Below, one piece after another: positions 379 to 16,991 of a DNA stretch of 16,991 nucleotides (the first letter of the stretch is position 1; every line of letters starts with the position of its first letter). The notes under the pieces are model-generated. The model had not been told where the DNA came from. It did no database searches and was given only the letters and a program-made list of their open reading frames with translations. This DNA comes from a virus (Duplodnaviria > Heunggongvirae > Uroviricota > Caudoviricetes), in IMG/VR virus record IMGVR_UViG_2778261391_000006, positions 1 through 16,991 of that record. One strand, 5' to 3'. The position numbers and the translations under genes were made by a program.

Positions 379-381
379 GCT

Positions 382-1719
382 TTGAAGAATCAGACACCAG
401 TTCTTGATGCTTCCTTGGAGGCTGTTAAAAGGCTGAAAACTAAGCTTGATAAAACTGATGGTTCGTTAGATTTAAACTATCTTAAAATTATAGACAGTGA
501 TCTTACAAACTTAGATGCGTTGCGCAGTGAAATTAAAACGCCTATCAAACCTCCAAAACTTGGAATGTATGAAGAGAAATATAGAGACTACAGAGATAAA
601 TTTAATGAGTTCTCTGCGTATATTCTACAAATGAAGTTAGCAATTAATAAACTTGATTCTGAATTAAATAAACTTGAGCCTTCATTGTCAGCGAAAAATC
701 ACCTTGAAAAAAATCAAGGTATTATTAATTCTAAACTAACTAAGTTTAATAACACGATAGAGGAGAAGATACATTCTCTTTTAAAAAAATGGGCCGATGA
801 AATAAAGGTTGATCGAAGTGATTATTATGCTAAAACTATATCAGTTGTTGATTCAATAGATAATGATTCACAAATTGAAAATGTGTTTAATTTGCTCGAT
901 AGTTTATATGTTGAGTCAGTTGATACCCTAACTTTCAAATATCAATCAATAATAAAAGGTCTCGATAGATTATTTGAAGGTATAAACTTAGATTCAGCAT
1001 TCTCATTATCTGAAGAAGAACGCTCATATTTTGAAGAAAAAGCTAAAAGTTTAAACGCGCTTGCACAGTTAGGTATTAGTGTTGAGATAATATCTCATGA
1101 ACTTGAAGAAATGGATTCTATGGTAACCAGAGGACTAAACTCTCTTCCTACTTTTGTAAAAGAACACCCTGGTTTTTCATTGGCGTTAAATGCTCACAGA
1201 TCGCTTACTCAACAAATACGTTTCTTATCACCTTTGAAAATATCAGGTTATCAATCCAGGCAGAGAATAACTGGAAAAAATATCATGGATTATGTCCTGA
1301 AGTTCTTTGGGGAGCGTTTCGAACGGCAACGAATAACTATTGAATTTAGTGAAGAGTTTAAGCAAATCGCAATAACAGATATACCATCAAGGATCTATCC
1401 TGTTTTTACTAATATTATCAACAATGCAATGTATTGGGTCAGTCTGTCAAATAATAGGCTCATAAAGATTGGTTTTGTGAATTCTTTGGTTATCATAGCA
1501 AATTCTGGTCCGGCAATTGATACCGATGATATCCCGCGACTATTTGAACTATTTTATAGCAAAAGAGCAAATGGACATGGGGTAGGTCTGTATCTATGTC
1601 GAGAAAACCTTGCTGTTGCACATCATAAAATATGGTATTCAGAACCTGATGAAGGCGATAACTATTTAATAAAAGATGGCGCTAATTTTGTGATCCAGTT
1701 CAATGGAGTGGAGTTCTAA
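382..1719 (+). CDS. Histidine-kinase-like protein: coiled-coil-like N-region, DHp H-box and GHKL/HATPase_c catalytic domain; no obvious TM helices
   Basis: H-box-like IISHELEEMDSM; N-box-like FTNIINNAMYW; G1-like ANSGPAIDTDD; G2-like GHGVGLYLCRE in the C-terminal third. Start uncertain (TTG 382 directly after the upstream stop; first ATG at ~565). Stop TAA 1717-1719 lies 1 nt before the next gene's ATG. Confidence 0.7.
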   Translation: MKNQTPVLDASLEAVKRLKTKLDKTDGSLDLNYLKIIDSDLTNLDALRSEIKTPIKPPKLGMYEEKYRDYRDKFNEFSAYILQMKLAINKLDSELNKLEPSLSAKNHLEKNQGIINSKLTKFNNTIEEKIHSLLKKWADEIKVDRSDYYAKTISVVDSIDNDSQIENVFNLLDSLYVESVDTLTFKYQSIIKGLDRLFEGINLDSAFSLSEEERSYFEEKAKSLNALAQLGISVEIISHELEEMDSMVTRGLNSLPTFVKEHPGFSLALNAHRSLTQQIRFLSPLKISGYQSRQRITGKNIMDYVLKFFGERFERQRITIEFSEEFKQIAITDIPSRIYPVFTNIINNAMYWVSLSNNRLIKIGFVNSLVIIANSGPAIDTDDIPRLFELFYSKRANGHGVGLYLCRENLAVAHHKIWYSEPDEGDNYLIKDGANFVIQFNGVEF

Positions 1720-1720
1720 T

Positions 1721-3469
1721 ATGACAGTGGCAAATTATAATTCTCTTGTCCAGAAAACTTTCTGCGAAAATGCAATTCGTTCCGTTGTCATGATTGATGA
1801 CGATTTTCTGACGTATTCTGAATCAATCAGGGCGTTGAATAACGAAGTTGATTTAGACTACAACAAAATTGACTCATCTAAACGAGCCGCTACTCTTGAG
1901 AGCTTTTTTCAATCTAAAAATATGATTTGTGATGTTGACAATGGTTCTGTTAATTTCGATGTGGATCGGATTAGAAAATCAGATCTTATTATTGTAGATT
2001 ATCATCTTGATAATAATGCACCTGATAAAACACTTAAACTATTACAAGATTTGAAAGACTCCGATCATTTAAATATGATTGTAATATATACTAGAGAGAA
2101 TTTAGAAACGGTTTGGATGCAGATATCATCGACTCTCAAAGGTGCTCTGGATATCAACAGCTTGATCATTGACTACGATAATGAAGATGTCCAAAGTTAT
2201 TGGGAAGACGTTGTATTACCGAACTTAAATGATAATGGTAATAAAGCTCTCACAAGAGATGAAACAATAGCCTATATTAAAGACAGTAAGCCTTGTAGAA
2301 GAATTAAAAGATTAATACATGATGATGCTGTGTTGGAGGATCAAAAGGATAAAAACTTCATTGCAAAAATGATTGCAGAATATGCTGTGTCTAGAAATGC
2401 AATTATTTCTAGCAACACATCTGGCAATGTCATTCGGGGTGATGAAAGCGGAGTAAAATGGATTCAATGTGGTAATATCTTTGTCTCCCTATTTCATAAG
2501 GTTCAAGATGATCATGAAAACGATGGAGATAGGATTTGGCAAACTCTCAATGATTCTCTCATTGAATGGAAACCATCTTATTATCAGTTAATAAAATCTG
2601 AAATTCAGAATGCAATCGAAGCTGAGGCTTTATCTTTTGTAAATCATTTGGCTAACGATCATTACGGTCAAGCTGCGTGGTTAAATGAGATATTAAAATC
2701 AGACTCGCCTGATATTAGATGTAGAAATATTGACTTTGTATTTGGTAATTTATCAGAAGAGCTTTATCAAAGACTTAAAAATAATAATACGCTGGATGAA
2801 TTTATCAAAAGTGTTTTTGATAGCTATTCAAATGAATACGCTAACAGCGGAGTTGCTGCATTGCTCCAATATTGCTCTTCAAAAATGGATCTGCCATCAA
2901 ATAATGATACTTATCACGAAATGTATCATGCTTTAAATATGAATTTGTCTTCAAAGAATTTTGAAGATGGTCATATTTCTACTGGCACTATTTTCTTTGA
3001 TACAGAGTCGAACAAATGGTATTTATGTGTATCTGCGGCATGTGATTTGGTTCCTACTCAGGGTAACGACCCTCACCATGTAAGATTAAGTCCGCACAGG
3101 CTCATTAAAGTTCTGGAGCTTTTTAACGCCAGTCAGAGTAAAGCATTGCCATTTGCTGAACATTCGAAATATATATATGTAATGCATAAAAATCAAAGAA
3201 AATATCTCTCTATTTTCGAAGGGGATAAAACGCTTCCTGTTGTTGATTATATGGTGGTGTTGAATCATGGAACAACAGTTGATGGCGAAGAAAAAAATAT
3301 TATTTCTGCCGTGTTTTTAAGTAATATGGATGGCAACGTGCAAAATGTTCCTGTCCGACTCAAACTTAAATCTCAACTGAGAACTGGTTATGCAGAAAGA
3401 TATCAGGCTATAGCGTCTCAGTATAGCTCAAGGATTGGTGTGGATTATGTATCAATGATGCTACCATAA
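1721..3469 (+). CDS. Response-regulator-like protein: N-terminal receiver (REC)-like domain fused to a ~430-aa uncharacterised C-terminal domain
   Basis: ATG 1721 preceded by GGAG (1710-1713) at 7-nt spacing; alternative ATG at 1703 has no RBS. REC-like pattern: acidic VVMIDDD strand, candidate phospho-acceptor Asp in DLIIVDYHLDNNAPDKTLKLLQDL, then NMIVIYTRE (Thr position). I recognise no motif in the C-terminal domain. Stop TAA 3467-3469. Confidence 0.65.
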   Translation: MTVANYNSLVQKTFCENAIRSVVMIDDDFLTYSESIRALNNEVDLDYNKIDSSKRAATLESFFQSKNMICDVDNGSVNFDVDRIRKSDLIIVDYHLDNNAPDKTLKLLQDLKDSDHLNMIVIYTRENLETVWMQISSTLKGALDINSLIIDYDNEDVQSYWEDVVLPNLNDNGNKALTRDETIAYIKDSKPCRRIKRLIHDDAVLEDQKDKNFIAKMIAEYAVSRNAIISSNTSGNVIRGDESGVKWIQCGNIFVSLFHKVQDDHENDGDRIWQTLNDSLIEWKPSYYQLIKSEIQNAIEAEALSFVNHLANDHYGQAAWLNEILKSDSPDIRCRNIDFVFGNLSEELYQRLKNNNTLDEFIKSVFDSYSNEYANSGVAALLQYCSSKMDLPSNNDTYHEMYHALNMNLSSKNFEDGHISTGTIFFDTESNKWYLCVSAACDLVPTQGNDPHHVRLSPHRLIKVLELFNASQSKALPFAEHSKYIYVMHKNQRKYLSIFEGDKTLPVVDYMVVLNHGTTVDGEEKNIISAVFLSNMDGNVQNVPVRLKLKSQLRTGYAERYQAIASQYSSRIGVDYVSMMLP

Positions 3470-3482
3470 TTATTATATTTTA

Positions 3483-3523
3483 GGCGTGGTGATTTTTTTT
3501 CGCCATGCCTATTTTATATTTAT
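3483..3523. terminator. Putative bidirectional terminator between convergent genes
   Basis: Imperfect inverted repeat AGGCGTGG (3483-3490) / CCATGCCT (3504-3511) with a T-rich loop, followed by a T/A-rich tract; lies between the convergent stops at 3469 (+) and 3541 (-). Confidence 0.3.
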
Positions 3524-3540
3524 CATCACAATGATGTTGT

Positions 3541-3957
3541 TTATTTTTGTTTAAGTCTTCTAAGCTTCATGCATTCTAATGAGAATAATAATAGAGTTGT
3601 GCTGTATATAAAGCCAGAGTTAGTTAATAACTTTAAATTTAATGCTTCAGGATTTTCACTGAGAAAGTGAAAGGCATAAACTAAGTATACAGCTAAAGTA
3701 GCCGTTCCAATTGTTGGTCCAATATCGCCTTGATCATGAGGTTCAAGGTTTACATTGAACTTGAAGATTAGCCATTCAAATCCCCAAGTAAAAAAAACAA
3801 CTAATATCATGGCTGCGAATAATTTCGCGATGTTATCTGCTGATGGATTCATCAGAACAGATTGTTTCTGAAAAAATTCACAAAGTGAGAGTCCGAAAAA
3901 AATAAAAAAAAGTGGTCTGGAACTAAATTTTTCAAAAACTTTGAATAGGGTTTCCAT
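3541..3957 (-). CDS. Small multi-pass membrane protein (138 aa), function unknown
   Basis: ATG at 3955-3957 with GAAGG-type RBS ~9 nt upstream; three to four hydrophobic helix-length segments (LFFIFFGLSL, AAMILVVFFTWGFEWLIF, TATLAVYLVYAFHFL, FIYSTTLLLFSL). Starts 38 bp downstream of the integrase stop on the same strand. Confidence 0.5.
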   Translation of the reverse strand: METLFKVFEKFSSRPLFFIFFGLSLCEFFQKQSVLMNPSADNIAKLFAAMILVVFFTWGFEWLIFKFNVNLEPHDQGDIGPTIGTATLAVYLVYAFHFLSENPEALNLKLLTNSGFIYSTTLLLFSLECMKLRRLKQK

Positions 3958-3995
3958 TTTCTTTACCTTCAGGATTATATTAGCTATTCTGATAC

Positions 3996-5225
3996 TTAGG
4001 CTACCAGAGCATTTGATCTTTGAGCTTGAACGTAATCACTCCACCATTGCATCAAACTCTGTCGCTCTATCAGATATTCTGCACGATTGTATGCTGCGAT
4101 AATTTCATCTTTTTTCGAGTGGGCAAGCGCTGCCTCAAGAACTTCAGCTCTGAATTTACCAGACTCCTCTGCCGCTGTTCGTGCAATAGAACGCATACCG
4201 TGAGCTACAAGCTCGCCTCCGAACCCCATTCGGATGATAGCTGCGTTGGCTGTTTGTTCATGCATATGATTAAGAGGCGCTTTTATGCTGGGGAAAACCC
4301 ATTCTCTATGCCCACTTATTGATTTCATTAATTCAAGGATGCGCAAAGCTTCTTTACTCAAAGGAACTTTGTGAAGCTTTTTCATTTTCATGAAATCAGC
4401 AGGAATGTTCCAAATGCTGTTGGTTGTATCAATATCAGACCACCTTGCGCGAACGGCTTCACCCGGACGAACCCATGTCAACAATTGCCATTCAATTAGC
4501 ATACGTGTTTCCAACCGGATTGACGCATTCGTCAAAGATTCCATAAACCTTGGCAATTCGCTTGGGGGAAGGGCAGGCATATTTTGCTTTTTTGGTTTAC
4601 TGAATCTTTGACCAAGGTTGTCAGCCGGGTTGAACTCAATAAGTTCTTCAGTAGCTGCCCACCGGAAGATTTCATTCAGACGTGAAATGATACGGCGTAG
4701 AGTTTCCAATACGCCTCGTTGCTCAATAGGATCAAGGTGTTGTTTTAAGAGCTTAGGTCGGATCTCATTGATAGGGACATTACCCAGACCGGGAAAGACA
4801 TTTCTCTCTAAGCTGCGCCAGATGTCTGCTGCATGGTCTTGTGAGATACCTGATGTCTTTACCTTCTCATCTAACCATTTCCGCGCTACGGCTTGGAGAG
4901 TGTGCTCAGTAGCACTCTTTAATGCCTTCGCCTTATCGTTGTTATGGATTTGGGGATCAACACCATTTGCCAGAAAGGAGAGATATTCATCACGTAAGGC
5001 TCTGGCTCTTGCAAGGGTAAGGTGAGGATATGTCCCAAGGCTCATTTTGGTTCTTTTCTTGCTCACTGGTACTGCATACCTGAAATACCAATTTTTCTTG
5101 CCTCCTTTCGCCAAAGGAGCGATTCGTAGAATCAGACCATCACCGTCAAACAAGTTGATTTCTTTATCGGCTGGCTTGGTGCTTTTGATTTCAGTGTCAG
5201 TGAGCTTCTTAGCGATTTTTGCCAT
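3996..5225 (-). CDS. int: P4-family tyrosine integrase (site-specific recombinase)
   Basis: N-terminal arm-binding-type region (KLTDTEIKSTKPADK...DGDGLILRI...WYFRY); C-terminal catalytic region with HxxR (LVAHGMRSIA) and Tyr motif (AAYNRAEYL). ATG 5225 has a GAGGG RBS; the ORF could also start at ATG 5267 (no RBS). Confidence 0.9.
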   Translation of the reverse strand: MAKIAKKLTDTEIKSTKPADKEINLFDGDGLILRIAPLAKGGKKNWYFRYAVPVSKKRTKMSLGTYPHLTLARARALRDEYLSFLANGVDPQIHNNDKAKALKSATEHTLQAVARKWLDEKVKTSGISQDHAADIWRSLERNVFPGLGNVPINEIRPKLLKQHLDPIEQRGVLETLRRIISRLNEIFRWAATEELIEFNPADNLGQRFSKPKKQNMPALPPSELPRFMESLTNASIRLETRMLIEWQLLTWVRPGEAVRARWSDIDTTNSIWNIPADFMKMKKLHKVPLSKEALRILELMKSISGHREWVFPSIKAPLNHMHEQTANAAIIRMGFGGELVAHGMRSIARTAAEESGKFRAEVLEAALAHSKKDEIIAAYNRAEYLIERQSLMQWWSDYVQAQRSNALVA

Positions 5226-5390
5226 TTTGGGACCCTCGGTTTTTGGACCCTTCTTAGTGGGTCCCATTCAGGGTGCCATAACTCGTAGTTCTCAGCAATT
5301 CTCACTGGACGACAATAGACGTAAAAAAGCCCGCAGAGCTTGTGCTGTGTGGGCTTAGTAGACTTCATTGAACTTCAAACAACTAAAAAG

Positions 5391-5412
5391 TGGTGGGCTG
5401 GCGGAGTTTGAA
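5391..5412 (-). other. tRNA/tmRNA 3'-end-like motif (candidate att core) between the integrase 5' end and crr
   Basis: Minus-strand reading TTCAAACTCCGCCAGCCCACCA ends in CCA and resembles, with a few indels, the T-arm/acceptor 3' end of tmRNA as I remember it. It lies ~165 bp upstream of the int start, where P4-type att sites sit. Not a complete tRNA. Confidence 0.3.
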
Positions 5413-5559
5413 TAAATATTGTATTGCTTTGATTTTTAATGATTTTGTTTAATTCATTTTTTGTGCGTATACCTAATCGTATACCAATGGTTGTAAGTTA
5501 ATGTGAAATGAAAGCGCATTTTTACTTGGATTGATGCTATATCGTACAGGAAAAAAATT

Positions 5560-5860
5560 TTTTTTCGAAAGAACTGTTCACACTGTTCACCTTTCTGTTT
5601 TCTCCTTTTATTTCAGAGTGATAGGTGGTGAATAATGGGTGAAGGGTGAACATTCGATTCTTCACCTCCGGCATTCTGCCGGTGTGACTTGTGCAGGGGA
5701 TTAATTTCCCGTGCTGAAATCATACCGGAAGAAAAAAAGTTTTTTTTGATTTGATTGTTCACACTGTTCACCTTTCATTTTTCTCTTTTGATTTCAGTGT
5801 GATAACGGGGGAATATACGGTGAAGGGTGAACACTGGATTGTTCACCTTCGGGGGATGTC
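5560..5860. repeat. P4-type cis replication region (crr): two imperfect direct repeats, each carrying TGTTCACC-type iterons
   Basis: Repeat 1 iterons at 5576-5583, 5585-5592 and inverted GGTGAACA at 5645-5652; repeat 2 at 5756-5763, 5765-5772, 5826-5833 and 5840-5847. Units are ~180 bp apart with the same internal order. TGTTCACC is the octamer bound by P4 alpha protein. Confidence 0.8.
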
Positions 5861-5863
5861 GGG

Positions 5864-5891
5864 ATAAAAAAAAGACCGGCAGATGCCGGTC
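5864..5891 (-). terminator. Rho-independent terminator of the leftward operon, just downstream of the alpha stop
   Basis: Minus-strand hairpin GACCGGC-ATCT-GCCGGTC (5874-5891) followed by a U8 tract (plus-strand A-run 5866-5873), 7 nt after the alpha stop codon at 5899-5901. Confidence 0.55.
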
Positions 5892-5898
5892 AGGTGGG

Positions 5899-8232
5899 TC
5901 AGGTTGTTGCAGGGGCGTCACATTTTGGCAGCCAGTCGCCGTAGCTTTCCTCTTTCAGCGTCAGGTTGGTCTGTATCCCCTGTTTGGTATGGCGCTTCTC
6001 GTAATTCAGTCCGTATTCCTTCAGCATCACCGGCAGCCCCAGCCCGAACATTTTCAGACTGAGTACATTCCGGTAGCCGTTTGCCTCCATGTAGGCCAGA
6101 TAGGCGTGATAGAGGTATTTACGGTAATTGCGCGGGATGATACTGGCGTTCCCCATATACATGCCGCTGGTCTGCGGCAGGGTTTCCAGATAGCCGATAA
6201 AATCAAACGTCGGGTCGGCATCCCGTTTGATGTTCAGTGCCTCGTCTGAGTTCTGCTGGGACTGAAGCAGTGACCGGGCGAGCATCGGGTCGCTGAACTT
6301 CTGCATCAGGTGACGCACGATGACCGCCAGCTCGCGGGTGATTTTGTCCTTAAGCTGCGGGTCGCGCTCCTGCGGGGCTATCTGTTCCGGGAAGTGAATA
6401 ATCACCCGCCGGCGTGACACGCCGCCGCTGCGGTCGGTGAAGCGCATCGGGTTATTGTTCACGGCCAGAATCACCGCCGGGATATGCGTGGAGTACGCAT
6501 CCCGGTATTTCGGGTCCACGGACACCGCATCGCCGCCGGTGATGGCCTTGAGTCCGGCACCGTCGCCGCTCCATTTTTCCTGGTCCGGCAGGCGTATCAG
6601 TGAGAAGCCAGTTAACGCGGCACGTTCACGCGGGGATTCCAGCGTCTCGATGGTGGCCGACGTGGCGTTATCCTCCCCGGCCAGCAGGGTGGCTATTTCG
6701 GCCATGATACTTTTGCCGCTGCCGCCAGGACCGGTCACCTCCAGAAAGAGCTGCCAGTCGTAGCGGTTTGCCAGCACCATAAACAGTGCGGCCAGAATCA
6801 CGTCGCGTTTTTCCGCACGGCCACCGGCGGCACGGTCAAGCCAGCGCCAGAACGCGGGGGCGTGGGTCTCCAGCGTTTCACCGTCCACCGGCGGGGTGAA
6901 ATCCACATCGCACAGGGTGCGCATCCAGTGTGACGGACTGTGCGGGTGGAACGTGCCGTTCTGCGTGTCGAGCACGCCGTTACGAAAGCCAATCAGGCGG
7001 CGGGAGGGGGCTTCCTGCTGCGGAATAATCAGCTTCAGGGTGTCCACCACGGAGGCCACCTTCCCGGAGGAGAACGGCGCGCGCAGACGCTGAAACAGCC
7101 CGGCCACATCCCGGGCAAAGTCCTGTGGCGGCAGCACCTTCCAGACACCATTTTCATAACGGGACAGAAGCTGGCCGTTGGCATCGACCGCGAGCGCCTC
7201 GCCGTAATGCTCATAGATACGCATGGCCTTTTCGCTGGTACTCATGGCGGAAAACTCTGCTTCGCTCATGGTGTCGAACGGGCTTTCAGCCGGTGGCCGG
7301 ATGGCATCATAAATGGCCTTACGGGTGGCCTCCCCGCCGTACTGCGTGAAGGCATCATTCCAGTCACCGAAGACCGGCGGCAGGGCAACAACACCTTCAC
7401 ACGCATCTGCGGCTGCGGCGGCTTTTTTCTGGCCGTCACCGCTGAGGTCACGGTCTGCGGCAAGGACAATCTGACAGGCCGGATGCTTCTGCCGGGCAAG
7501 GCTGGCCAGAGAAAGGAGGTTCACGGAAGAAAGCGCCACCATCACCGTTTCCCCGGTCAGGTGATGCACGGTAAGTGCGGTCGCGTATCCCTCCGCTATC
7601 CACAGACGTTTTCCGGCCTGATTCTGTCCTTCAAGGGTGTGACAGGTGCCCCTGACCTGTCCGCCTTTCAGGGTGCGCTTACGGCCGTCAGCACTGATTA
7701 ACTGAAGGTTAACCAGTTCGCCGCTGTCGTCATACAGTGGCACCACAAGGTCACCGGCGCGCCAGCTCACGCCACCGGCTCTGTGTGTGCCGGTCAGCAT
7801 CCGGCATTCCCGGTCGGGAAAGCCCTTGCGGGTCAGGTAGGCGTTACCGGTTCCGGGCCGGGTTTTTGCCATCAGGGTTTGTGCCAGTGCGGCGGCGTTC
7901 TTCCGGGCAGCGTCTGTTTCAGCACCGGCGGCGGCCGTCACTGCCGGGTCAGCCGGGGGCAGGCTGCCGGTCACGGCAGCCACCTTTGCGGCCGCGTCGG
8001 ACGGGGAAACACCAAACACCTTTTCAACCAGTTTCAGGCCGTCACCGGCACCACACTGATTGCAGTACCAGGTGCCGCGCCCCTCCCTGTCATCAAAACG
8101 GAAGCGGTCACTCCCGCCACAGACCGGACAGGGCTGATGACGGTTCTTCAGCACCTGAATCCCCAGCGCCGGGAGAATACGCGGCCAGTGGCCGAGCGCA
8201 TGGCTGACGGTGGCGGTTACGTTCATTTTCAT
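5899..8232 (-). CDS. alpha: P4 alpha-type replication protein (primase-helicase with origin-binding domain), 777 aa
   Basis: Zinc-binding motif CPVCGG...CNQCG near the N-terminus; primase EGYATA motif (WIAEGYATALT); Walker A GPGGSGKS; AAGGAGA RBS before ATG 8232. Length equals P4 alpha; iterons of the type it binds are present at crr and ori. Confidence 0.95.
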   Translation of the reverse strand: MKMNVTATVSHALGHWPRILPALGIQVLKNRHQPCPVCGGSDRFRFDDREGRGTWYCNQCGAGDGLKLVEKVFGVSPSDAAAKVAAVTGSLPPADPAVTAAAGAETDAARKNAAALAQTLMAKTRPGTGNAYLTRKGFPDRECRMLTGTHRAGGVSWRAGDLVVPLYDDSGELVNLQLISADGRKRTLKGGQVRGTCHTLEGQNQAGKRLWIAEGYATALTVHHLTGETVMVALSSVNLLSLASLARQKHPACQIVLAADRDLSGDGQKKAAAAADACEGVVALPPVFGDWNDAFTQYGGEATRKAIYDAIRPPAESPFDTMSEAEFSAMSTSEKAMRIYEHYGEALAVDANGQLLSRYENGVWKVLPPQDFARDVAGLFQRLRAPFSSGKVASVVDTLKLIIPQQEAPSRRLIGFRNGVLDTQNGTFHPHSPSHWMRTLCDVDFTPPVDGETLETHAPAFWRWLDRAAGGRAEKRDVILAALFMVLANRYDWQLFLEVTGPGGSGKSIMAEIATLLAGEDNATSATIETLESPRERAALTGFSLIRLPDQEKWSGDGAGLKAITGGDAVSVDPKYRDAYSTHIPAVILAVNNNPMRFTDRSGGVSRRRVIIHFPEQIAPQERDPQLKDKITRELAVIVRHLMQKFSDPMLARSLLQSQQNSDEALNIKRDADPTFDFIGYLETLPQTSGMYMGNASIIPRNYRKYLYHAYLAYMEANGYRNVLSLKMFGLGLPVMLKEYGLNYEKRHTKQGIQTNLTLKEESYGDWLPKCDAPATT

Positions 8233-8246
8233 GGTGTTGTTCTCCT

Positions 8247-8567
8247 TCAGTGCAGTACCGGCGCTTTTATGTGACGGGCACAGAGTTCATCCATCACAAC
8301 CAGCCCGAGAAAGGACAGCGACGGCGCTGCCTTCAGGGGGCCGGATTCCATTAAATCTTCCAGCAGGGCACAGGCTATCTGACGCCCTTTTTCCTCACCG
8401 TGCTGGCGCAGATAAAAGCCTTCCAGCTCAGCGGCGATGGCCGCCTCCAGTGATTCAAGGGTGAGATGCGGGTAGCGGTGCTGACGTTCGCACACGGTCA
8501 GCCAGGCACAGGCGACAGCGCGACGGTAAAGGGCTGCGCGTAAGACGGGCGGTAAGGGTGTTTTCAT
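8247..8567 (-). CDS. Hypothetical protein, 106 aa, in the position and size of P4 orf106
   Basis: ATG 8565-8567 with strong GGGAGGAAA RBS; ends 14 bp before the alpha start on the same strand. Confidence 0.6.
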
Positions 8568-8702
8568 TTGCTTTCCTCCCTGTGACAGATGACTGCATTC
8601 CGTGCCGGTTGCATTAACTGATAAGGCATATCTGCGTCTCCTGAAGACGTGCGTATCCCTGCGCGAATACGCACATTTAATTTTTCGGGTGTCGTTTTTT
8701 AA

Positions 8703-9158
8703 TTACAGATAATTGCGGTAACTGTTATCCGGGGTGATTTCCGGGTCAGGCTCCGTGCGGGGAATTTCCCGCCATTCCCGCGCCACCGGTGCCGCCCGGC
8801 TGACCGGAACAGTGTCCTGCGGGTAAATATCCAGATATTTCTCCCGCCATTTCTGTAATTCCGGGTCTCCGGCCATTTCTTTCAGTACCGCATGCCGGTT
8901 TACGGGGCTGCGTTTAAACAGGTCAGGACGGTCACAGGTAAATTCCCGCAGAAAACGCCCCAGCGGGATGTCTGTGGTGCGCCCGTCAGCGAGGATACGC
9001 ACAAGGATACTGAATTTACGGCGGTACGGGTTCCAGACAATGTCCGGGCAGCGGTACGGCATTTCCCACGGAATACCGTCTTCCAGAATGCCGACCACGG
9101 CCACATCGGGAAAACCGGCAGAACGGTAAATCTCACCGGGCTGGGGAAAATCAAACAT
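8703..9158 (-). CDS. Hypothetical protein, 151 aa, in the position and size of P4 orf151
   Basis: ATG 9156-9158 with GGAGA RBS; overlaps the epsilon stop by 8 nt, consistent with translational coupling in the left operon. Confidence 0.6.
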   Translation of the reverse strand: MFDFPQPGEIYRSAGFPDVAVVGILEDGIPWEMPYRCPDIVWNPYRRKFSILVRILADGRTTDIPLGRFLREFTCDRPDLFKRSPVNRHAVLKEMAGDPELQKWREKYLDIYPQDTVPVSRAAPVAREWREIPRTEPDPEITPDNSYRNYL

Positions 9159-9438
9159 GCGTCCTGTCTCCCCGGTCTTTCTGCTGGGCGAGAAAATCGC
9201 GGCACAGGCCTTTGGCTTTCAGCTCATTCAGCACAAAATCAATATCTTCATTCAGGTAGCTGAAAATATGCGGAATGTAGAGCTGATGCAGGCCGGAGAG
9301 TTCACGGTGAATCAAATCACCCCCAACAAACTGGGATACGGCGCTGGCGCGGTTGAGCTTATGGTAAGCCTCAATGCTGAGGTGTTCACGGGCGTCATGA
9401 CGCGCTGAGACGGTCTGAGGGGCTTTTTTATTACGCAC
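9151..9438 (-). CDS. epsilon: Probable epsilon-like protein (P2-repressor antagonist / derepression protein position), 95 aa
   Basis: ORF with GTG start and no internal Met, in the expected place between the immunity region and orf151. Assigned by synteny only. Confidence 0.45.
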
Positions 9439-10021
9439 GGGACACCCCCATCACCGGCAGACGGGCAGCAAGGGAGAGCACATAGTCACGGACAAGGGAA
9501 CGGCGGGCGCTGCGTTCATCACCGGCGACGGTGCGAAGCATACAGATACGGGGATGACGGTCTGCGCGACGGACAGCCGCAAACACAAAGACAAATTCAG
9601 GGTGTGAGGGGGTAAGGGTCGTAGCCATAAGGCAACCTCCGATAACAGCGTAAATGACGCTATCGCCGGAGTTCTCACGCTCGATGGCGATAGCCCAGAC
9701 GGGGGTGAGAATACCGGCGTTATCGGATACCGGCCAGCCCGAAGGCTGCCCCGCCTGAGCTACCATTGACTCAGTGGCATAACATGCGATTGCGAACAGG
9801 ATCATACCTGCACGGCAAACCACACGCCACACCATAATCTGGCGCTCTGTGGCGTTGATTGCGACACAAAAAAAGACGCATGGCGCGTCATATGTCGCCG
9901 ATAACATACTCGGGTTCTCACGCCCGGCTGCCGATTTTGCGGCAGCGGAAAAACTATATCCGCAAATGCCGGAAAAAGGCAAGCCAGAAAAAGGGAGTTT
10001 TTGCAGAGCGGGCATCATCAT
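9431..10021 (-). CDS. ORF in the left-operon leader/immunity region (kil/eta-equivalent position); boundaries uncertain
   Basis: Start ATG 10019-10021 overlaps the vis stop in an ATGA arrangement, but a good promoter candidate lies inside this ORF, so the real product may start further downstream or the frame may be a GC-rich artefact. Confidence 0.25.
9439..9945 (-). other. Leader/immunity region of the left operon, where a P4-type CI RNA and its complementary seq elements are expected
   Basis: Region between the candidate early promoter and the epsilon start. By P4 architecture the processed immunity RNA lies here; I could not place it by sequence. Confidence 0.3.
9953..9982 (-). promoter_or_regulatory. 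Candidate early leftward promoter (PLE-like), sigma70-type
   Basis: Minus-strand TTGCCT (-35, plus 9977-9982), 18-bp spacer, TATAGT (-10, plus 9953-9958); lies ~395 bp downstream of the candidate late promoter, matching the P4 PLL-PLE spacing. Confidence 0.4.
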
Positions 10022-10284
10022 GCGTCGTACCCCCGTTTGCGTCCGGCAATGCGCCCGGCCATCCATGCGGTGATTTCAGAGTGCAGCCAGGCCACATTTT
10101 TACCGCCAAGGCTCACCTGCGGTGGAAATTCCCCCTTACGGATAAGTTCATAGATGGTCGAGCGTGACAGGCCGCACAGGTGCATCACTTCCGGCAGACG
10201 TAAAAAACGCTCCTGTGTGATATCCGGCAGCGGAATCAGTGGCGTCACAGGGGCGGGAGACGGGGAAGAAAAAACAGCTTGCAT
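10018..10284 (-). CDS. vis: Vis / AlpA-family small DNA-binding regulator-excisionase, 88 aa
   Basis: AlpA-type HTH core [50 protein letters not shown]; ATG 10282-10284 with GAGGT RBS; first gene after the leftward late promoter, as in P4. Confidence 0.85.
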
Positions 10285-10386
10285 CGGGCTACCTCGTTAA
10301 TGTCCATACAGCACCGGATAAGTCCGTCCGGCTTCGGGTAGCGCTTTATTTTGTGAATATTTTTGGCAGACGCAACAGGGGGGATT

Positions 10387-10404
10387 TGTTCAGGCAGCCT
10401 TACA
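10387..10404 (-). promoter_or_regulatory. Late leftward promoter activator site (PLL-like), TGT-N12-ACA dyad
   Basis: TGT(10387-10389)-N12-ACA(10402-10404), about 100 bp upstream of the vis start; this dyad is the Ogr/Delta site of P2/P4 late promoters. Confidence 0.5.
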
Positions 10405-10563
10405 ATGGCTGTGTGTTTTTTATCCATCCGGACTGGAAGGGTCTCAAAGGGTTCTGAAGGACCTGGAATTTTTTATAGTGAAATACAAATTGTTTTTTCT
10501 TATTCATTCCCGGCGAATTAATAAAAACAAACAGTAGTAAACAGCACAAAAAGTCCATGAGCG

Positions 10564-10668
10564 GGTGAACAGTGGTGAACAGACGGTGAACAGTCATTAC
10601 TGCGATTGTTCACCCTTTAACTTACTGTATTACTTATCTTTTTTATTAAGGTGAACAGAGGTGAACAG
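10564..10668. repeat. P4-type origin of replication: six type I iterons around an AT-rich spacer
   Basis: GGTGAACAG at 10564-10572, 10574-10582, 10585-10593, 10650-10658, 10660-10668 and inverted TGTTCACC at 10607-10614; AT-rich stretch 10616-10649. Same octamer as in crr, ~4.9 kb away. Confidence 0.75.
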
Positions 10669-10746
10669 TAAAATATAAAAAAACAAACAGTAAGCCGGTT
10701 TTTCCTGCGACCTTTTCCTGGCTTGCCGGTGTGAGGATGAGTCTCC

Positions 10747-10764
10747 TGTGTCAGGGCTGGCACA
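10747..10764 (+). promoter_or_regulatory. Late rightward promoter activator site (Psid-like), TGT-N12-ACA dyad
   Basis: TGT(10747-10749)-N12-ACA(10762-10764), ~80 bp upstream of the sid ATG, the expected position for a -55-centred activator site. Confidence 0.55.
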
Positions 10765-10836
10765 TCTGCAATGCGTCGTGTTGTTGTCCGGTGTACGTCA
10801 CAATTTTCTTAACCTGAAGTGACGAGGAGCCGGAAA

Positions 10837-11571
10837 ATGTCTGACAACACCATCCCTGAATATCTGCAACCCGCACTGGCACAACTGGAAAAGGCCAGAG
10901 CCGCCCATCTTGAGAACGCCCGCCTGATGGATGAGACCGTCACGGCCATTGAACGGGCAGAGCAGGAAAAAAATGCGCTGGCGCAGGCCGACGGAAACGA
11001 CGCTGACGACTGGCGCACGGCCTTTCGTGCAGCCGGTGGTGTCCTGAGCGACGAGCTGAAACAGCGCCACATTGAGCGCGTGGCACGCCGGGAACTGGTA
11101 CAGGAATATGACAATCTGGCCGTGGTGCTGAATTTTGAACGCGAACGCCTGAAAGGGGCGTGTGACAGCACGGCCACCGCCTACCGGAAGGCACATCATC
11201 ACCTTCTGAGTCTGTATGCAGAGCATGAGCTGGAACACGCCCTGAATGAAACCTGTGAGGCGCTTGTCCGGGCAATGCATCTGAGCATTCTGGTACAGGA
11301 AAATCCGCTCGCCAACACCACCGGCCATCAGGGCTACGTCGCACCGGAAAAGGCTGTCATGCAGCAGGTGAAATCATCGCTGGAACAGAAAATTAAACAG
11401 ATGCAAATCAGCCTCACCGGCGAGCCGGTTCTCCGGCTGACCGGACTGTCAGCGGCAACACTTCCTCACATGGATTATGAGGTGGCAGGCACACCGGCAC
11501 AGCGCAAGGTGTGGCAGGACAAAATAGACCAGCAGGGAGCAGTGCTTAAGGCCAGAGGACTGCTGTCATGA
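10837..11571 (+). CDS. sid: Sid-type external capsid-size-determination scaffold protein, 244 aa
   Basis: ATG 10837 with GAGGAG RBS at 7-nt spacing (the track's 10819 start has no RBS); coiled-coil-rich; length and position match P4 Sid; stop overlaps the delta start (ATGA). Confidence 0.85.
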   Translation: MSDNTIPEYLQPALAQLEKARAAHLENARLMDETVTAIERAEQEKNALAQADGNDADDWRTAFRAAGGVLSDELKQRHIERVARRELVQEYDNLAVVLNFERERLKGACDSTATAYRKAHHHLLSLYAEHELEHALNETCEALVRAMHLSILVQENPLANTTGHQGYVAPEKAVMQQVKSSLEQKIKQMQISLTGEPVLRLTGLSAATLPHMDYEVAGTPAQRKVWQDKIDQQGAVLKARGLLS

Positions 11572-12068
11572 TTTACTGCCCGTCGTGTGGTCATGTTGCT
11601 CACACCCGCCGCGCACATTTCATGGACGATGGCACCAAGATAATGATTGCACAGTGCCGGAATATTTATTGCTCTGCGACATTTGAAGCGAGTGAAAGCT
11701 TTTTCTCTGACTGTAAAGATTCAGGAATGGAATACATTTCAGGCAAACAGAGATACCGCGATTCACTGACGTCAGCCTCCGGCAGTATGAAACGGCCGAA
11801 AAGAATGCTTGTTACCGGATATTGTTGTCGGAGATGTAAAGGCCTTGCACTGTCAAGAACATCGCGGCGTCTGTCTCAGGAAGTCACCGAGCGTTTTTAT
11901 GTGTGCACGGATCCGGGCTGTGGTCTGGTGTTTAAAACGCTTCAGACCATTAACCGTTTCATTGTCCGCCCGGTCACGCCGGACGAACTGGCAGAAAGCC
12001 TGCATGAAAAACAGGAACTGCCGCCAGTACGCTTAAAAACACAATCATATTCGCTGCGTCTGGAATGA
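11568..12068 (+). CDS. delta: Delta-type late transcriptional activator (tandem Ogr-like zinc-finger protein), 166 aa
   Basis: Two Ogr-like zinc-finger halves: CPSCGH...C...YC and CCRRCKG...C...C; translationally coupled to sid; length equals P4 Delta. Confidence 0.9.
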   Translation: MIYCPSCGHVAHTRRAHFMDDGTKIMIAQCRNIYCSATFEASESFFSDCKDSGMEYISGKQRYRDSLTSASGSMKRPKRMLVTGYCCRRCKGLALSRTSRRLSQEVTERFYVCTDPGCGLVFKTLQTINRFIVRPVTPDELAESLHEKQELPPVRLKTQSYSLRLE

Positions 12069-12141
12069 GGGCTGCCGGTTAACACCGGCCGTCGCCGCAC
12101 ACCGTATTTTTATTCTTCAGCATGATGAGAAAGAGATAACG

Positions 12142-12714
12142 ATGGAAAGCACAGCCTTACAGCAGGCCTTTGACACCTGTCAGAATAACAAAGCAGCATG
12201 GCTGCAACGCAAAAATGAGCTGGCAGCGGCCGAACAGGAATACCTGCGGCTTCTGTCAGGAGAAGGCAGAAACGTCAGTCGCCTGGACGAATTACGCAAT
12301 ATTATCGAAGTCAGAAAATGGCAGGTGAATCAGGCCGCTGGTCGTTATATTCGTTCGCATGAAGCCGTTCAGCACATCAGCATCCGCGACCGGCTGAATG
12401 ATTTTATGCAGCAGCACGGCACAGCACTGGCGGCGGCACTGGCACCGGAGCTGATGGGCTACAGTGAGCTGACGGCCATTGCCCGAAACTGTGCCATACA
12501 GCGTGCCACAGATGCCCTGCGTGAAGCCCTTCTGTCCTGGCTTGCGAAGGGGGAAAAAATTAATTATTCCGCACAGGATAGCGACATTTTAACGACCATC
12601 GGATTCAGGCCTGACGCGGCTTCGGTGGACGACAGCCGTGAAAAATTTACCCCTGCGCAGAACATGATTTTTTCGCGTAAAAGTGCGCAACTGGCATCAC
12701 GTCAGTCTGTGTAA
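12142..12714 (+). CDS. psu: Psu-type polarity suppression / capsid decoration protein, 190 aa
   Basis: Third gene of the sid-delta-psu late operon; length and position match P4 Psu; followed by cos. Confidence 0.8.
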   Translation: MESTALQQAFDTCQNNKAAWLQRKNELAAAEQEYLRLLSGEGRNVSRLDELRNIIEVRKWQVNQAAGRYIRSHEAVQHISIRDRLNDFMQQHGTALAAALAPELMGYSELTAIARNCAIQRATDALREALLSWLAKGEKINYSAQDSDILTTIGFRPDAASVDDSREKFTPAQNMIFSRKSAQLASRQSV

Positions 12715-12740
12715 AATTTCCCGAAAATCCGCCTGTTTTT

Positions 12741-12777
12741 ACTGAAAAAAGCCATGCATCGATAAGGTGCATGGCTT
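12741..12777 (-). terminator. Putative terminator (hairpin plus T-tract on the minus strand) between psu and cos
   Basis: Perfect 10-bp stem AAGCCATGCA / TGCATGGCTT (12749-12758 / 12768-12777) with a 9-nt loop; on the minus strand it is followed by TTTTTT (plus-strand A-run 12745-12750). Could stop the integrase-cargo transcript and possibly psu read-through. Confidence 0.4.
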
Positions 12778-12878
12778 TGCATGCGTTTCCCTGCCTCATT
12801 TTCTGCAGACCGCGCCATTCCCGGCGCGGTCTGAGCGTGTCAGTGCAACTGCATTAAAACCGCCCCGCAAAGCGTGCG

Positions 12879-12897
12879 GGCGAGGCGGGGAAAGCAC
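12879..12897. other. cos site: P2/P4-type 19-nt cohesive end sequence
   Basis: Exact GGCGAGGCGGGGAAAGCAC, which I recall as the P2/P4 cohesive end, at the position expected from P4 (just after psu). Confidence 0.8.
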
Positions 12898-12911
12898 TGC
12901 GCGTAGCGATA

Positions 12912-14684
12912 TTAAATATCCCACAATTTTTCTAAATCAAGAGTATCGCTGTTAGGAGCATTTTCCTCAGCTAATCTGTCGATTTGAACAAGTAATGGGG
13001 TGTGGAAAGCTGTTCCTGAAACTATACACCCACCAGGAGGAAGTGTTGGAATTAGTGATCTTGATGCCGCATCAAGGGTGCTTAAAGTATTTTTTAACAA
13101 AAACAAATCATTTTCGTTCACTAATCGATGAATAAAATAATTATGAAGTTGGGAAACAATTGTGGGAGAGATGTCAAAAGGTCGTTGACTCGAAATTGTA
13201 ACGAAGAACCCAAACTTCCTTCCCTCTTTTATTATTTCCTCAAATAACTCAAGCCTATAATCTTTCCATGTTTCCGCCTCTCTGACAGATGTTTCAGACA
13301 ATATGTTGTGTGCTTCATCTATAATTAGGTGGAAGCTTTCCTTTGTATTTTTAGATGACTTGTGCTCTAAGAATGAACATTTTGCAAGCATCATTGGAAT
13401 GGTTTTTTTGATTAATTGATTGCACTCTTTTAATGACACTATATATATAGGTTTTTTATTTTTTGTTTCGTTTCTGATATTAATTACTTTGGATAGGGCA
13501 GGAGTCATTGCCGTTATTTTATTAATTAGCGGATATATATGATCATATTGTACATAATTACGTGATACTGAATTAATTAGTTGTAGAATAGATCGGATTG
13601 CAACTTCATCAAAAACGCTGTTTAACTTAAACTTGGATTTATATGTTGCATCTAAAGCCTGTAAAGCATCTTCCATTTTATCAATGAAGTTGTATTTTGA
13701 GTGCAAATACTTATTTTGCCCAGAATGCCATGAGAATTGTGATAACTCTTCAAGTATTTTACCCTGTGCTCTCTCTGAAAAGTAAGGGGCAAGGCTTTTT
13801 AATAAATTTATTGTTTCCCTGTGTGGATTAGGAGAAAACATACTGTGGATAGTTGTTTGTAAGTAATCCTCCAATTTACCATTATATTTTTCTCTATTTT
13901 TAATTAAATGACTAAGAAATGGCTTTTGAGTTTTTTCAGTTGCAGAAAACAATACCGATAATAATTCATCATCCCAAAATTCATCATCAGTGAAAGTTAG
14001 TTTATCACCGGAATTCTTTGTGTTGAGATTGACTTGTTCGCACAAATCTGGAAATGACGTAGCAAATGTGCTGTATTCACCATTAAAATCAATCAAAACA
14101 AAACTTGATTTTGATATAACTCTTTCTTTTGTTGTTATAAGGTTTATTAGAGAGTGATAAAGTTTTGCAAGAGTGTTGGACTTGCCACTTCCAGTGTTTC
14201 CAAATATGCCTATGTGTGAATTAAAAATACCATTTATTGGTATGTTAATTGGCAACTCCTCTAACATAGATTTCCCTATGTTTATTAAAGGTGCTTTAGT
14301 GTTTTTGCTAAACTTATATATTTCTGATATCTTCTCGTCTGAAATTAAGTGTAAGCTGTCATTTATCATTGGTAAAAATTTTATACCGGAATAAAATGAA
14401 CTCTCAAAAAAATACCCTAAAATATTCAGTTCTACAAAACGGTCATATTTTTTTTGTTCAATTTCATCGCTTCTAATATTGATGTTTTCAACAATTTCTT
14501 CACCAATAATCTTTCCGACGATATCGTGATAACCTTTTTTAATCAAAACAAATTCATTTATAGAGATACCTCGTAGTATTTTACCTTTATGAAAGTATGT
14601 TGACTGAAAAAAGTCATGATTGATTTTGGCCCTTACTGTTGTGCCCTTTATTTGGGTAACATTACCAACAATTAGTTCTTCCAT
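12912..14684 (-). CDS. herA: HerA-like ATPase (HerA/FtsK-type), partner of the SIR2 protein in the SIR2-HerA (Nezha) defence system
   Basis: Walker A GIFGNTGSGKSNT; Walker B/DEAH LIIDEAHN; C-terminal RKFGFFVTISSQRPFDI-type segment typical of HerA; ATG 14684 with GGAGA RBS; overlaps the upstream SIR2 gene by 13 nt. Confidence 0.85.
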   Translation of the reverse strand: MEELIVGNVTQIKGTTVRAKINHDFFQSTYFHKGKILRGISINEFVLIKKGYHDIVGKIIGEEIVENINIRSDEIEQKKYDRFVELNILGYFFESSFYSGIKFLPMINDSLHLISDEKISEIYKFSKNTKAPLINIGKSMLEELPINIPINGIFNSHIGIFGNTGSGKSNTLAKLYHSLINLITTKERVISKSSFVLIDFNGEYSTFATSFPDLCEQVNLNTKNSGDKLTFTDDEFWDDELLSVLFSATEKTQKPFLSHLIKNREKYNGKLEDYLQTTIHSMFSPNPHRETINLLKSLAPYFSERAQGKILEELSQFSWHSGQNKYLHSKYNFIDKMEDALQALDATYKSKFKLNSVFDEVAIRSILQLINSVSRNYVQYDHIYPLINKITAMTPALSKVINIRNETKNKKPIYIVSLKECNQLIKKTIPMMLAKCSFLEHKSSKNTKESFHLIIDEAHNILSETSVREAETWKDYRLELFEEIIKEGRKFGFFVTISSQRPFDISPTIVSQLHNYFIHRLVNENDLFLLKNTLSTLDAASRSLIPTLPPGGCIVSGTAFHTPLLVQIDRLAEENAPNSDTLDLEKLWDI

Positions 14685-15787
14685 GTAATCCAATCTCCGT
14701 GTTCAGATCTAAATACTCTATCTATAAACGGTTTAAATGAAATTGTATGATCATCTTCTATAGGAAGAATATAGGTTATTCGTTGGTCATTGATAATGTG
14801 CTGTATACTTTCCATGCTGGATTTTGAGTAGCAAAAAACAAAGACCTTAAGAGTAGGGTTACTTAATGATCTTTTTATAATCTCACGTATGTGTTCATCT
14901 TGAAAAGAAAAACCAAAACAAATTAATACAGTTTGTGGTTTCTCTAATTCATAACTTAGCAATCGTAAACATTGGTAATAATGTTGTTGAAAAACAGTTT
15001 CAGAAAATTTTTCTTTAGTTGGGCTAACTATAGCTAAGTTGTTGTAATAAGATTTAAATTCTTGAAGTGTTTCTTGATCGCTTGTAGATAAATTTAAATA
15101 ACTAACGAGATTATCGCTTGTTTCGTTTAAGGTGGTGACTAAATCATTAATGTCTTTTTTTGTATCTAGTCTAAACTTTGGTGGTTCTTCTTGAGTGTAA
15201 TTAATACTAATCGTTTCATTAATATCTCTACACCAAGAAACAGAACCATGCATTTTTATTAAGTTTACTGTTGGAATTTCATGTTTGTACATATCATGCG
15301 TACCTTGATGCCAAGCAGTAATATGAAAATTACTAATGTTCAATTTCCGGCTTTTGAAACCTAGACCACCGTCATTGAAATGAAATGTTTTATTATTTAA
15401 AATATCATCAGCCGCAGTTTCGAAAAAAAGATCATAATTTGTTGTAAAAATATTCGCTCGCCTTATTTGATTTGCCCCTTTTTTCTCTAATAATTTGATT
15501 AGTTCATCAATAAAGTAGCTATAGTTTGCTAAAGTAGAATTATATTTTTTGTCTTCACTATTAGGTTTAACACAAAATGTTTTTCTAATGATATTATTGA
15601 AATAAGAACATAATATGAAGTCCTTGACACCCTCACAATCCTCATGTGTAAGTAATGTTTCATAAGTAGTGTTTTTATCTAGATAGAGAGTAGGAATATA
15701 TGAAGCAGAGGAGCCTGAGCCAAATAAAAAATTTATATTTTTATCATAGATATTTGAGGCTTTGCATGGAAAATCTTTATTATTCAT
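14672..15787 (-). CDS. SIR2-family (sirtuin-like NAD+-binding) protein, first gene of the SIR2-HerA defence operon
   Basis: Rossmann glycine loop FLFGSGSSASYIP; TTNYD motif (sirtuin TQNID-like); catalytic-His-type MHGS; ATG 15785-15787 with AAGGA RBS; starts 7 bp after the integrase stop. Confidence 0.85.
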   Translation of the reverse strand: MNNKDFPCKASNIYDKNINFLFGSGSSASYIPTLYLDKNTTYETLLTHEDCEGVKDFILCSYFNNIIRKTFCVKPNSEDKKYNSTLANYSYFIDELIKLLEKKGANQIRRANIFTTNYDLFFETAADDILNNKTFHFNDGGLGFKSRKLNISNFHITAWHQGTHDMYKHEIPTVNLIKMHGSVSWCRDINETISINYTQEEPPKFRLDTKKDINDLVTTLNETSDNLVSYLNLSTSDQETLQEFKSYYNNLAIVSPTKEKFSETVFQQHYYQCLRLLSYELEKPQTVLICFGFSFQDEHIREIIKRSLSNPTLKVFVFCYSKSSMESIQHIINDQRITYILPIEDDHTISFKPFIDRVFRSEHGDWITWKN

Positions 15788-15797
15788 CACTATATCC

Positions 15798-16991
15798 TTA
15801 TTTGTTTTTTGAAATGAAACTACCCCACCAATTCATAAGCTCTTTTCTTTGTTCCAAGTAGGTTGTTCGATTATATGCTCTTCTAACCTCATTTTTATCA
15901 CAATGGGAAAGTGCTGCTTCGATAATATCTGGATTTATACCAGCTTCATTCATTGCTGTACTTGCTATCGAACGCAGTCCGTGTGCAACCAACTTACCAC
16001 CATAACCGATGCGCTTTAAGGCTGCATTTGCCGTCTGACTGTTCATTGGTTGATTGGGGTTATTCCTGCTAGGAAAAATATATTCTCGATGTGAACTGAT
16101 TGGCTTCATAATTTCAAGAATATCTAATGTCTGAAGTGATAATGGAACAATATGTTCCCGCTTTGCCTTCATTCTATTGGCTGGTATTATCCATAGTTTA
16201 GCTTCGAAATCGATCTCTATCCACTTTGCATTGGAAGCTTCTGCAGGGCGTACAAGTGTTAAGAGTTGCCATTCAATCAAACAACGAGTTGGAATAGATA
16301 AATTAGACATTGTTATTGAACGCATGAGTTTCGGTAATTCTTCAGGTCTAAGCGTTGGCATGTGCTGTTTTTTAGGTTTTTCAAATGCCATACCAATGCC
16401 TGAAGCAGGGTTAGCATCTATCAGACCAGTATTAACAGCATAAATCATAATTTCATTAATACGTTGTACTAAACGACGAACAGTCTCAAGTGCCCCACGA
16501 GCTTTAATTGGCTCTAGGGCTTCAATTAATGTGCGGGCTTTTATTTCCTGAACAGGAATCTCACCGATAGCAGGGAAAATGTCCCTCTCTAAGGATCGCC
16601 ATATATCCTTTGCATAATCAGGTGTGACGTTATTGCTTTTTATGGCAAACCAATTTGTGGCAACTTTTGAAAAAATACTATCAATCGCAATCTGTTGATG
16701 TTCTGAGACTTGCTTACTGTATGTTTGTGGATCAATACCCCGGGCTAATAAGGAAAGATACTCAGCACGCACGTTTCTGGCCTCAGCCAGAGATAGGGCG
16801 GGGAACGTTCCTAAACTAATCATGGTTCTCTGTTTTGATACAGGCTTCTGGTATCGGAAACGCCACAACTTCCTTCCGTTCGTTTTTATGAGTAGAAAAA
16901 GCCCATCACCATCATGTAGCGTTAGATCCTTTTCAGTTGCTTTAGCACGTGATAGTTCAGTGTTAGTAAGAGGGCGTGTTGTACGTGCCAC
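15798..16991 (-). CDS. int: P4-family tyrosine integrase (second copy, distinct sequence); 5' end at or just beyond the window edge
   Basis: Same architecture as the first integrase (LTNTELSRAKATEKD...DGDGLFLLI...WRFRY; HxxR LVAHGLRSIA; Tyr motif RRAYNRTTYL) but clearly diverged. The frame is open to the window end, so the true start may lie outside. Confidence 0.9.
   Translation of the reverse strand: MARTTRPLTNTELSRAKATEKDLTLHDGDGLFLLIKTNGRKLWRFRYQKPVSKQRTMISLGTFPALSLAEARNVRAEYLSLLARGIDPQTYSKQVSEHQQIAIDSIFSKVATNWFAIKSNNVTPDYAKDIWRSLERDIFPAIGEIPVQEIKARTLIEALEPIKARGALETVRRLVQRINEIMIYAVNTGLIDANPASGIGMAFEKPKKQHMPTLRPEELPKLMRSITMSNLSIPTRCLIEWQLLTLVRPAEASNAKWIEIDFEAKLWIIPANRMKAKREHIVPLSLQTLDILEIMKPISSHREYIFPSRNNPNQPMNSQTANAALKRIGYGGKLVAHGLRSIASTAMNEAGINPDIIEAALSHCDKNEVRRAYNRTTYLEQRKELMNWWGSFISKNK

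Follow-up and report, generated by a model that had tools for sequence, protein, structure and literature searches.

Background

The closest described counterparts of the locus analysed here are the cos sites of the satellite P4 and of the P2-like phages (Peduoviridae), and the defence hotspot of the P4-like satellites. A 55-bp core common to the cos sites of the P2 family is described, with reference to Ziermann & Calendar (1990), in three later papers (PMC5694545, PMC9594776, PMC2231350), and the helper terminase is known to act on circular monomers (PMC2231350). The P4-like family has been defined by Moura de Sousa & Rocha (2021, PMC8628076), according to whom tandem arrays, and neighbours with an integrase of their own, occur. 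The defence hotspot of these satellites lies between psu and int, directly beside cos, and SIR2+HerA are among its occupants (Rousset et al. 2022, PMC9122126). The capacity of the small capsid is about 12 kb (PMC9122126). Swaps of cargo are rapid, and exchange between P2 and P4 is almost nil (NAR 2026, PMC13586616).

The DNA analysed is the full 16,991-nt stretch of IMGVR_UViG_2778261391_000006, hereafter called the window, to which the coordinates refer unless another record is named. Judged from its sequence, the window very probably harbours an intact satellite prophage of the P4 family, inserted at ssrA, together with the cos site of that satellite; cleavage, excision and packaging would proceed in the manner of P4. 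The order psu - cos - defence cassette - int is the same as in the published hotspot (PMC9122126, PMC8628076, PMC13586616), and there is no difference in kind; the window is distinct only in the combination of alleles in the cos core and in the tandem context at ssrA. The architecture is already published, and the finding is correct but ordinary. Scientifically, it is one further example of a published pattern, mildly new only in the double-variant cos core and in the haplotype evidence for a crossover in the core.

Compared with P4 (NC_001609 / X51522; Ziermann & Calendar 1990), the window has the same 19-mer and 34 of the 35 upstream core bases, its cos likewise follows psu and the psu terminators, and the backbone from crr to the right end is 97.3% identical. 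The differences are T instead of G at -4, T (as in P2) instead of C at +1, and T instead of C at +7; an unrelated sequence past +7, where SIR2-HerA occupies the slot of gop/beta/cII; an integrase that is only 34% identical; and integration at ssrA instead of leuX. The cos sites of P2 and the P2-like phages have in common with the window the 19-mer and a core of about 60 bp (95% over 12844-12903), and in them, too, a variable cargo locus adjoins cos. In contrast to P4, the homology to P2 is confined to the core, and the window is without structural or terminase genes. From the CP4-57-type P4-like cryptic prophage at ssrA of E. coli K-12, which has a P4-family integrase next to ssrA and an AlpA-type regulator, the element in the window differs in that it retains cos and all the late and replication genes of P4, and it does not look cryptic.

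Identity and position of the 19-mer

The sequence GGCGAGGCGGGGAAAGCAC occurs once in the window, and it is the sole match even when up to three mismatches are permitted. It is identical at 19 of 19 positions to bases 1-19 of P4 (NC_001609, a linear record of 11,624 bp that opens at the cohesive end). The same sequence is found in P2 (OU784750), and it is the annotated cosR in the P2-like phage fiAA91-ss. The last 179 bases of P4 (11446-11624) align to 12700-12878 with 96.6% identity, and this alignment stops one base before the 19-mer, which starts 164 nt past the psu stop codon, as in P4. The 19-mer therefore sits at the junction of the psu-side right end and the cargo/int-side left end of the satellite map. 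The nicks are placed at these coordinates because the P4 record ends there: the top strand would be nicked between 12878 and 12879 and the bottom strand between 12897 and 12898, leaving 5' overhangs.

The original prediction held that the 19-mer is the P2/P4 cohesive end and that it lies where P4 has cos. Both statements are borne out, the former by the exact identity to P4, P2 and fiAA91-ss, and the latter by the collinearity of the P4 right end up to 12878, after psu. The alignment to the P2 and P4 cos regions that had been proposed as a check finds both the 19-mer and the shared core in the window, and the flanking recognition sequence, the absence of which had been named as the point that would tell against the prediction, is represented by the core at 12844-12904.

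Bare exact matches to the 19-mer, without any cos context, are found in unrelated G+C-rich genomes (L011, L012, L028, L031, L041), and it may be asked whether the 19-mer in the window is likewise a chance occurrence in G+C-rich DNA. This explanation is refuted and is given no weight: the naive expectation for the sequence in the window is 1.2e-7, none of 200 dinucleotide-preserving shuffles of the window gave it, and here the 19-mer stands in the full conserved context with synteny to P4. The P2-like phages have the same 19-mer and core, and for this reason the site could be thought to be the cos of a helper and not of a satellite, belonging to a P2-like prophage or its remnant. Such an origin is extremely improbable, being refuted by the flanks: on its upstream side the site is flanked by psu and the right end of P4 (96.6%), and P2 structural and terminase genes were not found in the window.

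Table 1. Coordinates of the features of the satellite and its cos region in the window.
Feature	Coordinates	Strand	Evidence
Degenerate copy of the ssrA 3' end (att core); distal border of the satellite and junction with the neighbouring island	5388..5404	+	Matches to the ssrA-proximal region of NZ_CP075663 (L004)
crr-like cis replication region	5552..5852	+	Start of P4 alignment (P4 4291 = window 5552); 120-bp crr repeats matched
alpha primase-helicase	5899..8232	-	Pfam primase, Toprim, D5; 99.1% to P4 alpha, full length
epsilon (helper derepression)	9151..9438	-	Pfam Derepression 7.7e-51; 98.9% to P4, full length
C4/CI immunity RNA	9683..9770	-	Rfam RF01695, 76 bits
vis/AlpA-type excisionase-regulator (P4 ORF88)	10018..10284	-	Pfam Phage_AlpA; 96.6%, full length
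sid (external scaffold for small capsid)	10837..11571	+	99.2% to P4 Sid, all 244 aa
delta (helper late-gene activator)	11568..12068	+	Pfam Ogr_Delta; 97.6% to P4 Delta over 166 aa
psu (capsid decoration, Rho antagonist)	12142..12714	+	Pfam Psu 1.3e-88; 99.5% to P4 Psu, all 190 aa
Inverted repeat CCGCGCC-ATTCCC-GGCGCGG, upstream of core	12810..12829	+	High information content at about -69 to -50 in P4-like contexts
Conserved core shared by P2 and P4, about -35 to +7	12844..12904	+	Information content of natural cos contexts
Rare substitution at -4, T (G in P4, P2 and closest genome)	12875	+	G in 146/150, T in 3/150 among the matches listed
cos cohesive end, 19 nt, GGCGAGGCGGGGAAAGCAC	12879..12897	+	Identity to P4 nt 1-19 and to the cos of P2 and fiAA91-ss
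Rare substitution at +7, T (C in nearly all others); start of variable cargo region	12904	+	C in 146/150, T in 3/150 among the matches listed
HerA ATPase of cassette	12912..14693	-	PADLOC HerA 1.1e-192; Pfam DUF87
SIR2 effector of cassette	14672..15790	-	PADLOC SIR2 4.1e-65; Pfam SIR2_2
Integrase of the satellite	15798..16991	-	Pfam integrase domains; annotation of NZ_CP075663

Satellite backbone

P4 4291-11624 aligns to window 5552-12878 with 97.3% identity, and the core components of a P4-like element (int, alpha, epsilon, alpA/vis, sid, delta and psu) are all present, intact and in P4 order. When the P4 proteins are used as tblastn queries, all are recovered at full length with amino acid identities of 96.6-100%, including ORF106 (100%) and ORF151 (99.3%), with the exception of the integrase (34%). 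The presence of sid, delta and psu had been taken as the mark of a satellite that uses the capsid of a P2-like helper, and this stands, the three genes being full length and 97.6-99.5% identical to those of P4. The RNA features isrK and c4-a1b1 are found by Rfam at 9869-9959.

The closest complete genome is NZ_CP075663 (L004, E. coli STEC2017-197), which matches at 98.7% across the whole window. In its annotation, sid (16853-17586) is frameshifted and mislabelled 'glycoprotein 3'; sid in the window is intact.

Integrases and borders of the element

The window ends at the start codon of the satellite's own integrase, and in NZ_CP075663 ssrA lies about 185 nt beyond this point. The distal att core, on the attR side, carries an indel relative to the ssrA end, and the attL side falls beyond the window. 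Arm-type repeats at 5466-5488 resemble those upstream of the ssrA-proximal integrase, and the backbone homology to another satellite (L052) starts at 5396. From these borders the satellite is predicted to span from about 5388 to about 185-200 nt beyond the end of the window. The excised circle, measured from att core to ssrA core in L004 and extrapolated to the window, comes to about 11.8 kb, close to the 11.6 kb of P4, and an element of this size fits the small capsid of about 12 kb.

A second integrase gene, at 3996-5267, belongs to another island in tandem and not to the satellite; both integrases of the window are about 34% identical to P4 Int. With this assignment to the neighbouring island, the boundaries of the element are corrected. 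The position of the gene beside alpha was first read as an unintegrated or circular form, by comparison with the order int-attP-alpha in P4. This reading was ruled out by the other integrase beside ssrA and by the degenerate ssrA core between int1 and alpha, which together indicate a tandem array. The efficiency of excision is uncertain, because the distal att core is degenerate with an indel and the neighbouring island stands in tandem.

The second island (window 1-5404) contains, besides its integrase (3996-5267, - strand), a gene for a 138-aa hypothetical protein (3541-3957, - strand) and a two-gene pair consisting of a HEF_HK histidine-kinase-like ATPase (1-1719, + strand) and Response_reg_2 (1703-3469, + strand). 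PADLOC gave no match for the pair, which belongs to a class that has been termed an NTP-dependent conflict system. An in-frame stop at 376-378 splits the ATPase gene into 1-378 and 382-1719; the corresponding region of L004 (6001-7719) is one CDS of 572 aa. The split gene is probably a pseudogene in the source strain or a sequencing error.

A similar terminator-like hairpin (AAAAAAGCCCGCA...GCGGGCTT) precedes both integrases (window 5323-5356; L004 23123-23157). In the integrated state it lies directly downstream of ssrA, and therefore the island supplies the terminator of the tmRNA gene.

Conservation of the cos core

The minimal requirements for cos according to Ziermann & Calendar (1990) were available through secondary citations only, and the core was therefore defined empirically from natural sites. 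Exact matches to the 19-mer were collected at 38 loci in species-representative genomes and at least 120 loci in viral contigs. Among the matches listed, an unbiased set of 150 sites has a genuine cos context, 29 with psu upstream (P4-like) and 115 without psu (P2-like). Among these matches, both kinds of context show high information content between about -35 and +7 and a collapse past +7, and the 29 P4-like sites listed have 22 distinct sequences beyond +7.

The window carries the whole core from -35 to +7, with the majority base among the matches listed at all highly conserved positions except -4 and +7. Each of the two rare alleles is present in about 2% of the 150 natural cos sites, and among the matches listed the two are found together only in the window. 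In targeted scans, -4T was also found in P4-like elements of the Raoultella/Klebsiella type, in L043/L047, where the context is P2-like, and in L048, a P4-like element of E. coli, and +7T was found at eight viral-contig loci with differing cargo as well as in L004. The nick sites are two-fold symmetric (GCGGGCR^G on the left and, reverse-complemented, GCGCGCA^G on the right), and -4 is the one position at which the half-sites already differ (G left, C right). The latter suggests that T may be tolerated there, which is an argument and not a proof.

These two substitutions raise the question of whether the site, inherited by descent, might be impaired, either through weaker nicking by the terminase, caused by -4T/+7T, or through a defect in excision from the tandem array at ssrA, so that it would be a relic in a domesticated defence island. 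Positions -4 and +7 are each about 97% invariant over the 150 sites, the double variant is unique among the matches listed, and both positions are within the two symmetric half-sites beside the nicks (GCGSGCR^G). In addition, sister elements with the same cargo carry G at -4, the att core is degenerate, and tandem P4-like arrays are said to decay (PMC8628076). However, the eight core genes of P4 are all intact, as is the immunity RNA (96.6-100%), which is unexpected in a long-decaying element, and each variant is met again in several independent elements, among them P2-like phages, which rely on their own cos. The difference between the half-sites at -4 also speaks for tolerance, and +7 is the exact start of the cargo junctions. 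Impairment is considered unlikely on this evidence, and the site is taken to be the cos of an intact satellite, with the effect that -4T/+7T may have on cleavage as a caveat on its predicted function.

A hairpin across -15 to -3 (CCCGC-AAA-GCGGG) was considered and rejected. It gave no covariation signal (1 context has A/T, whereas 5 have A/G and 6 have C/T), and the pair A(-14)/T(-4) was found in one lineage only (L043/L047). Simple promoter and terminator scans near cos gave nothing beyond chance.

Upstream of the core, the inverted repeat at 12810-12829 may be a terminator and/or a piece of the packaging recognition region. An inverted repeat containing CYGGCGCGG, located at about -69 to -50, shows strong conservation in P4-like elements of several genera (Escherichia, Kosakonia, Raoultella, Klebsiella, Dickeya; homologous positions in L005-L042), and some P2-like sites have a weaker CTGGCGCGG-like motif at a comparable distance. 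The packaging signal may thus extend past the 55-bp core. An ORF of 62 aa (12767-12955, + strand) crosses the cos core. In RefSeq relatives it is called a 'hypothetical protein' (WP_072038093.1) and cos itself is unannotated; the ORF is most likely a spurious gene call.

Haplotypes across cos

Over the 230 nt upstream of cos the window is identical to L048, which has a different cargo and C at +7. L004, which has the same cargo as the window, differs at 7 positions across those 230 nt. Since -4T is within the 230-nt haplotype common to the window and L048, it is inherited and not a sequencing error. The window is a mosaic over 12648-12904, with the upstream haplotype as in L048 and the cargo side as in L004, and therefore a crossover is placed between -4 and +7, inside the cos core.

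The junction of cos and HerA is present in 12 of 5426 complete E. coli genomes, none of which is identical to the window across the junction; in L004, one of the 12, the two differences are at -4 and -65. For most of the E. coli relatives, homology to the window runs out at 12903-12916, as a cargo hotspot would predict. It is tentatively suggested that the cos core is a recombination joint for the exchange of cargo, and that the -4T/+7T core could also alter nicking efficiency or helper preference, although we consider this unlikely. If true, with terminase-cut or homologous cos cores driving the exchange, it would provide a mechanism for the rapid turnover of the hotspot, which recent papers call unexplained.

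SIR2-HerA cargo

The SIR2 and HerA genes are adjacent on the - strand and form one operon, their ORFs overlapping at 14672-14693. They are predicted to constitute an anti-phage defence cassette, which would protect via NAD+ depletion. A gap of 14 nt separates the 19-mer from the stop codon of HerA; this would place the cargo at the left end of the virion DNA and upholds the expectation that the cargo would lie next to a genome end in virions.

The SIR2-HerA cargo was sought in the phage collection, as a test of exchange of cargo between P2 and P4, and no match was found there. Its absence from the collection is consistent with the near-lack of P2-P4 exchange (PMC13586616).

Predicted excision and packaging

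The analysis shows directly how far the sequences agree, where the site lies, that the core is conserved, that the genes are intact and how large the element is. For cleavage, excision and packaging, established P2/P4 biology suggests the following course. On activity of a P2-like helper, the satellite would be excised by its integrase (15798-16991) together with Vis/AlpA, and the circle of about 11.8 kb would replicate from ori/crr using alpha. Sid would divert the assembly of the helper capsid to the small shell. The helper terminase would recognise the core (12844-12904) and introduce staggered nicks at 12878/12879 and 12897/12898, and the linear genome so formed, whose 5' cohesive ends would be 19 nt long, would be packaged in Sid-directed small capsids.

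The map of the virion DNA would accordingly be cosL - HerA - SIR2 - int - attP - crr - alpha ... sid - delta - psu - cosR, with SIR2-HerA and the integrase at the left end and psu at the right end. P2-type packaging takes excised circular monomers, and therefore packaging would hinge on excision from ssrA, too. No helper phage is visible in the window.

For annotation, the value of the site is that cos flags the ssrA island as a probably mobile P4-family satellite, and that it settles the layout of the virion DNA by assigning the cargo to its left end. Such a satellite can carry SIR2-HerA between strains in P2-type capsids.

Other natural cos sites

Two further observations were made on the natural sites. 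In one IMG/VR contig (L046), a distance of 334 bp separates two complete cos cores (at 6399 and 6733 of the reverse complement), one with -4G and a P4-like upstream flank and the other with -4T and a different flank; this double cos may represent tandem or nested P2/P4-family elements. Full P2/P4 cos contexts are also found in assemblies that bear the labels Bacillota, Clostridiales, Lachnospiraceae and Vagococcus (L010, L026, L035, L016, L033), and these are probably mis-binned or contaminating enterobacterial DNA.
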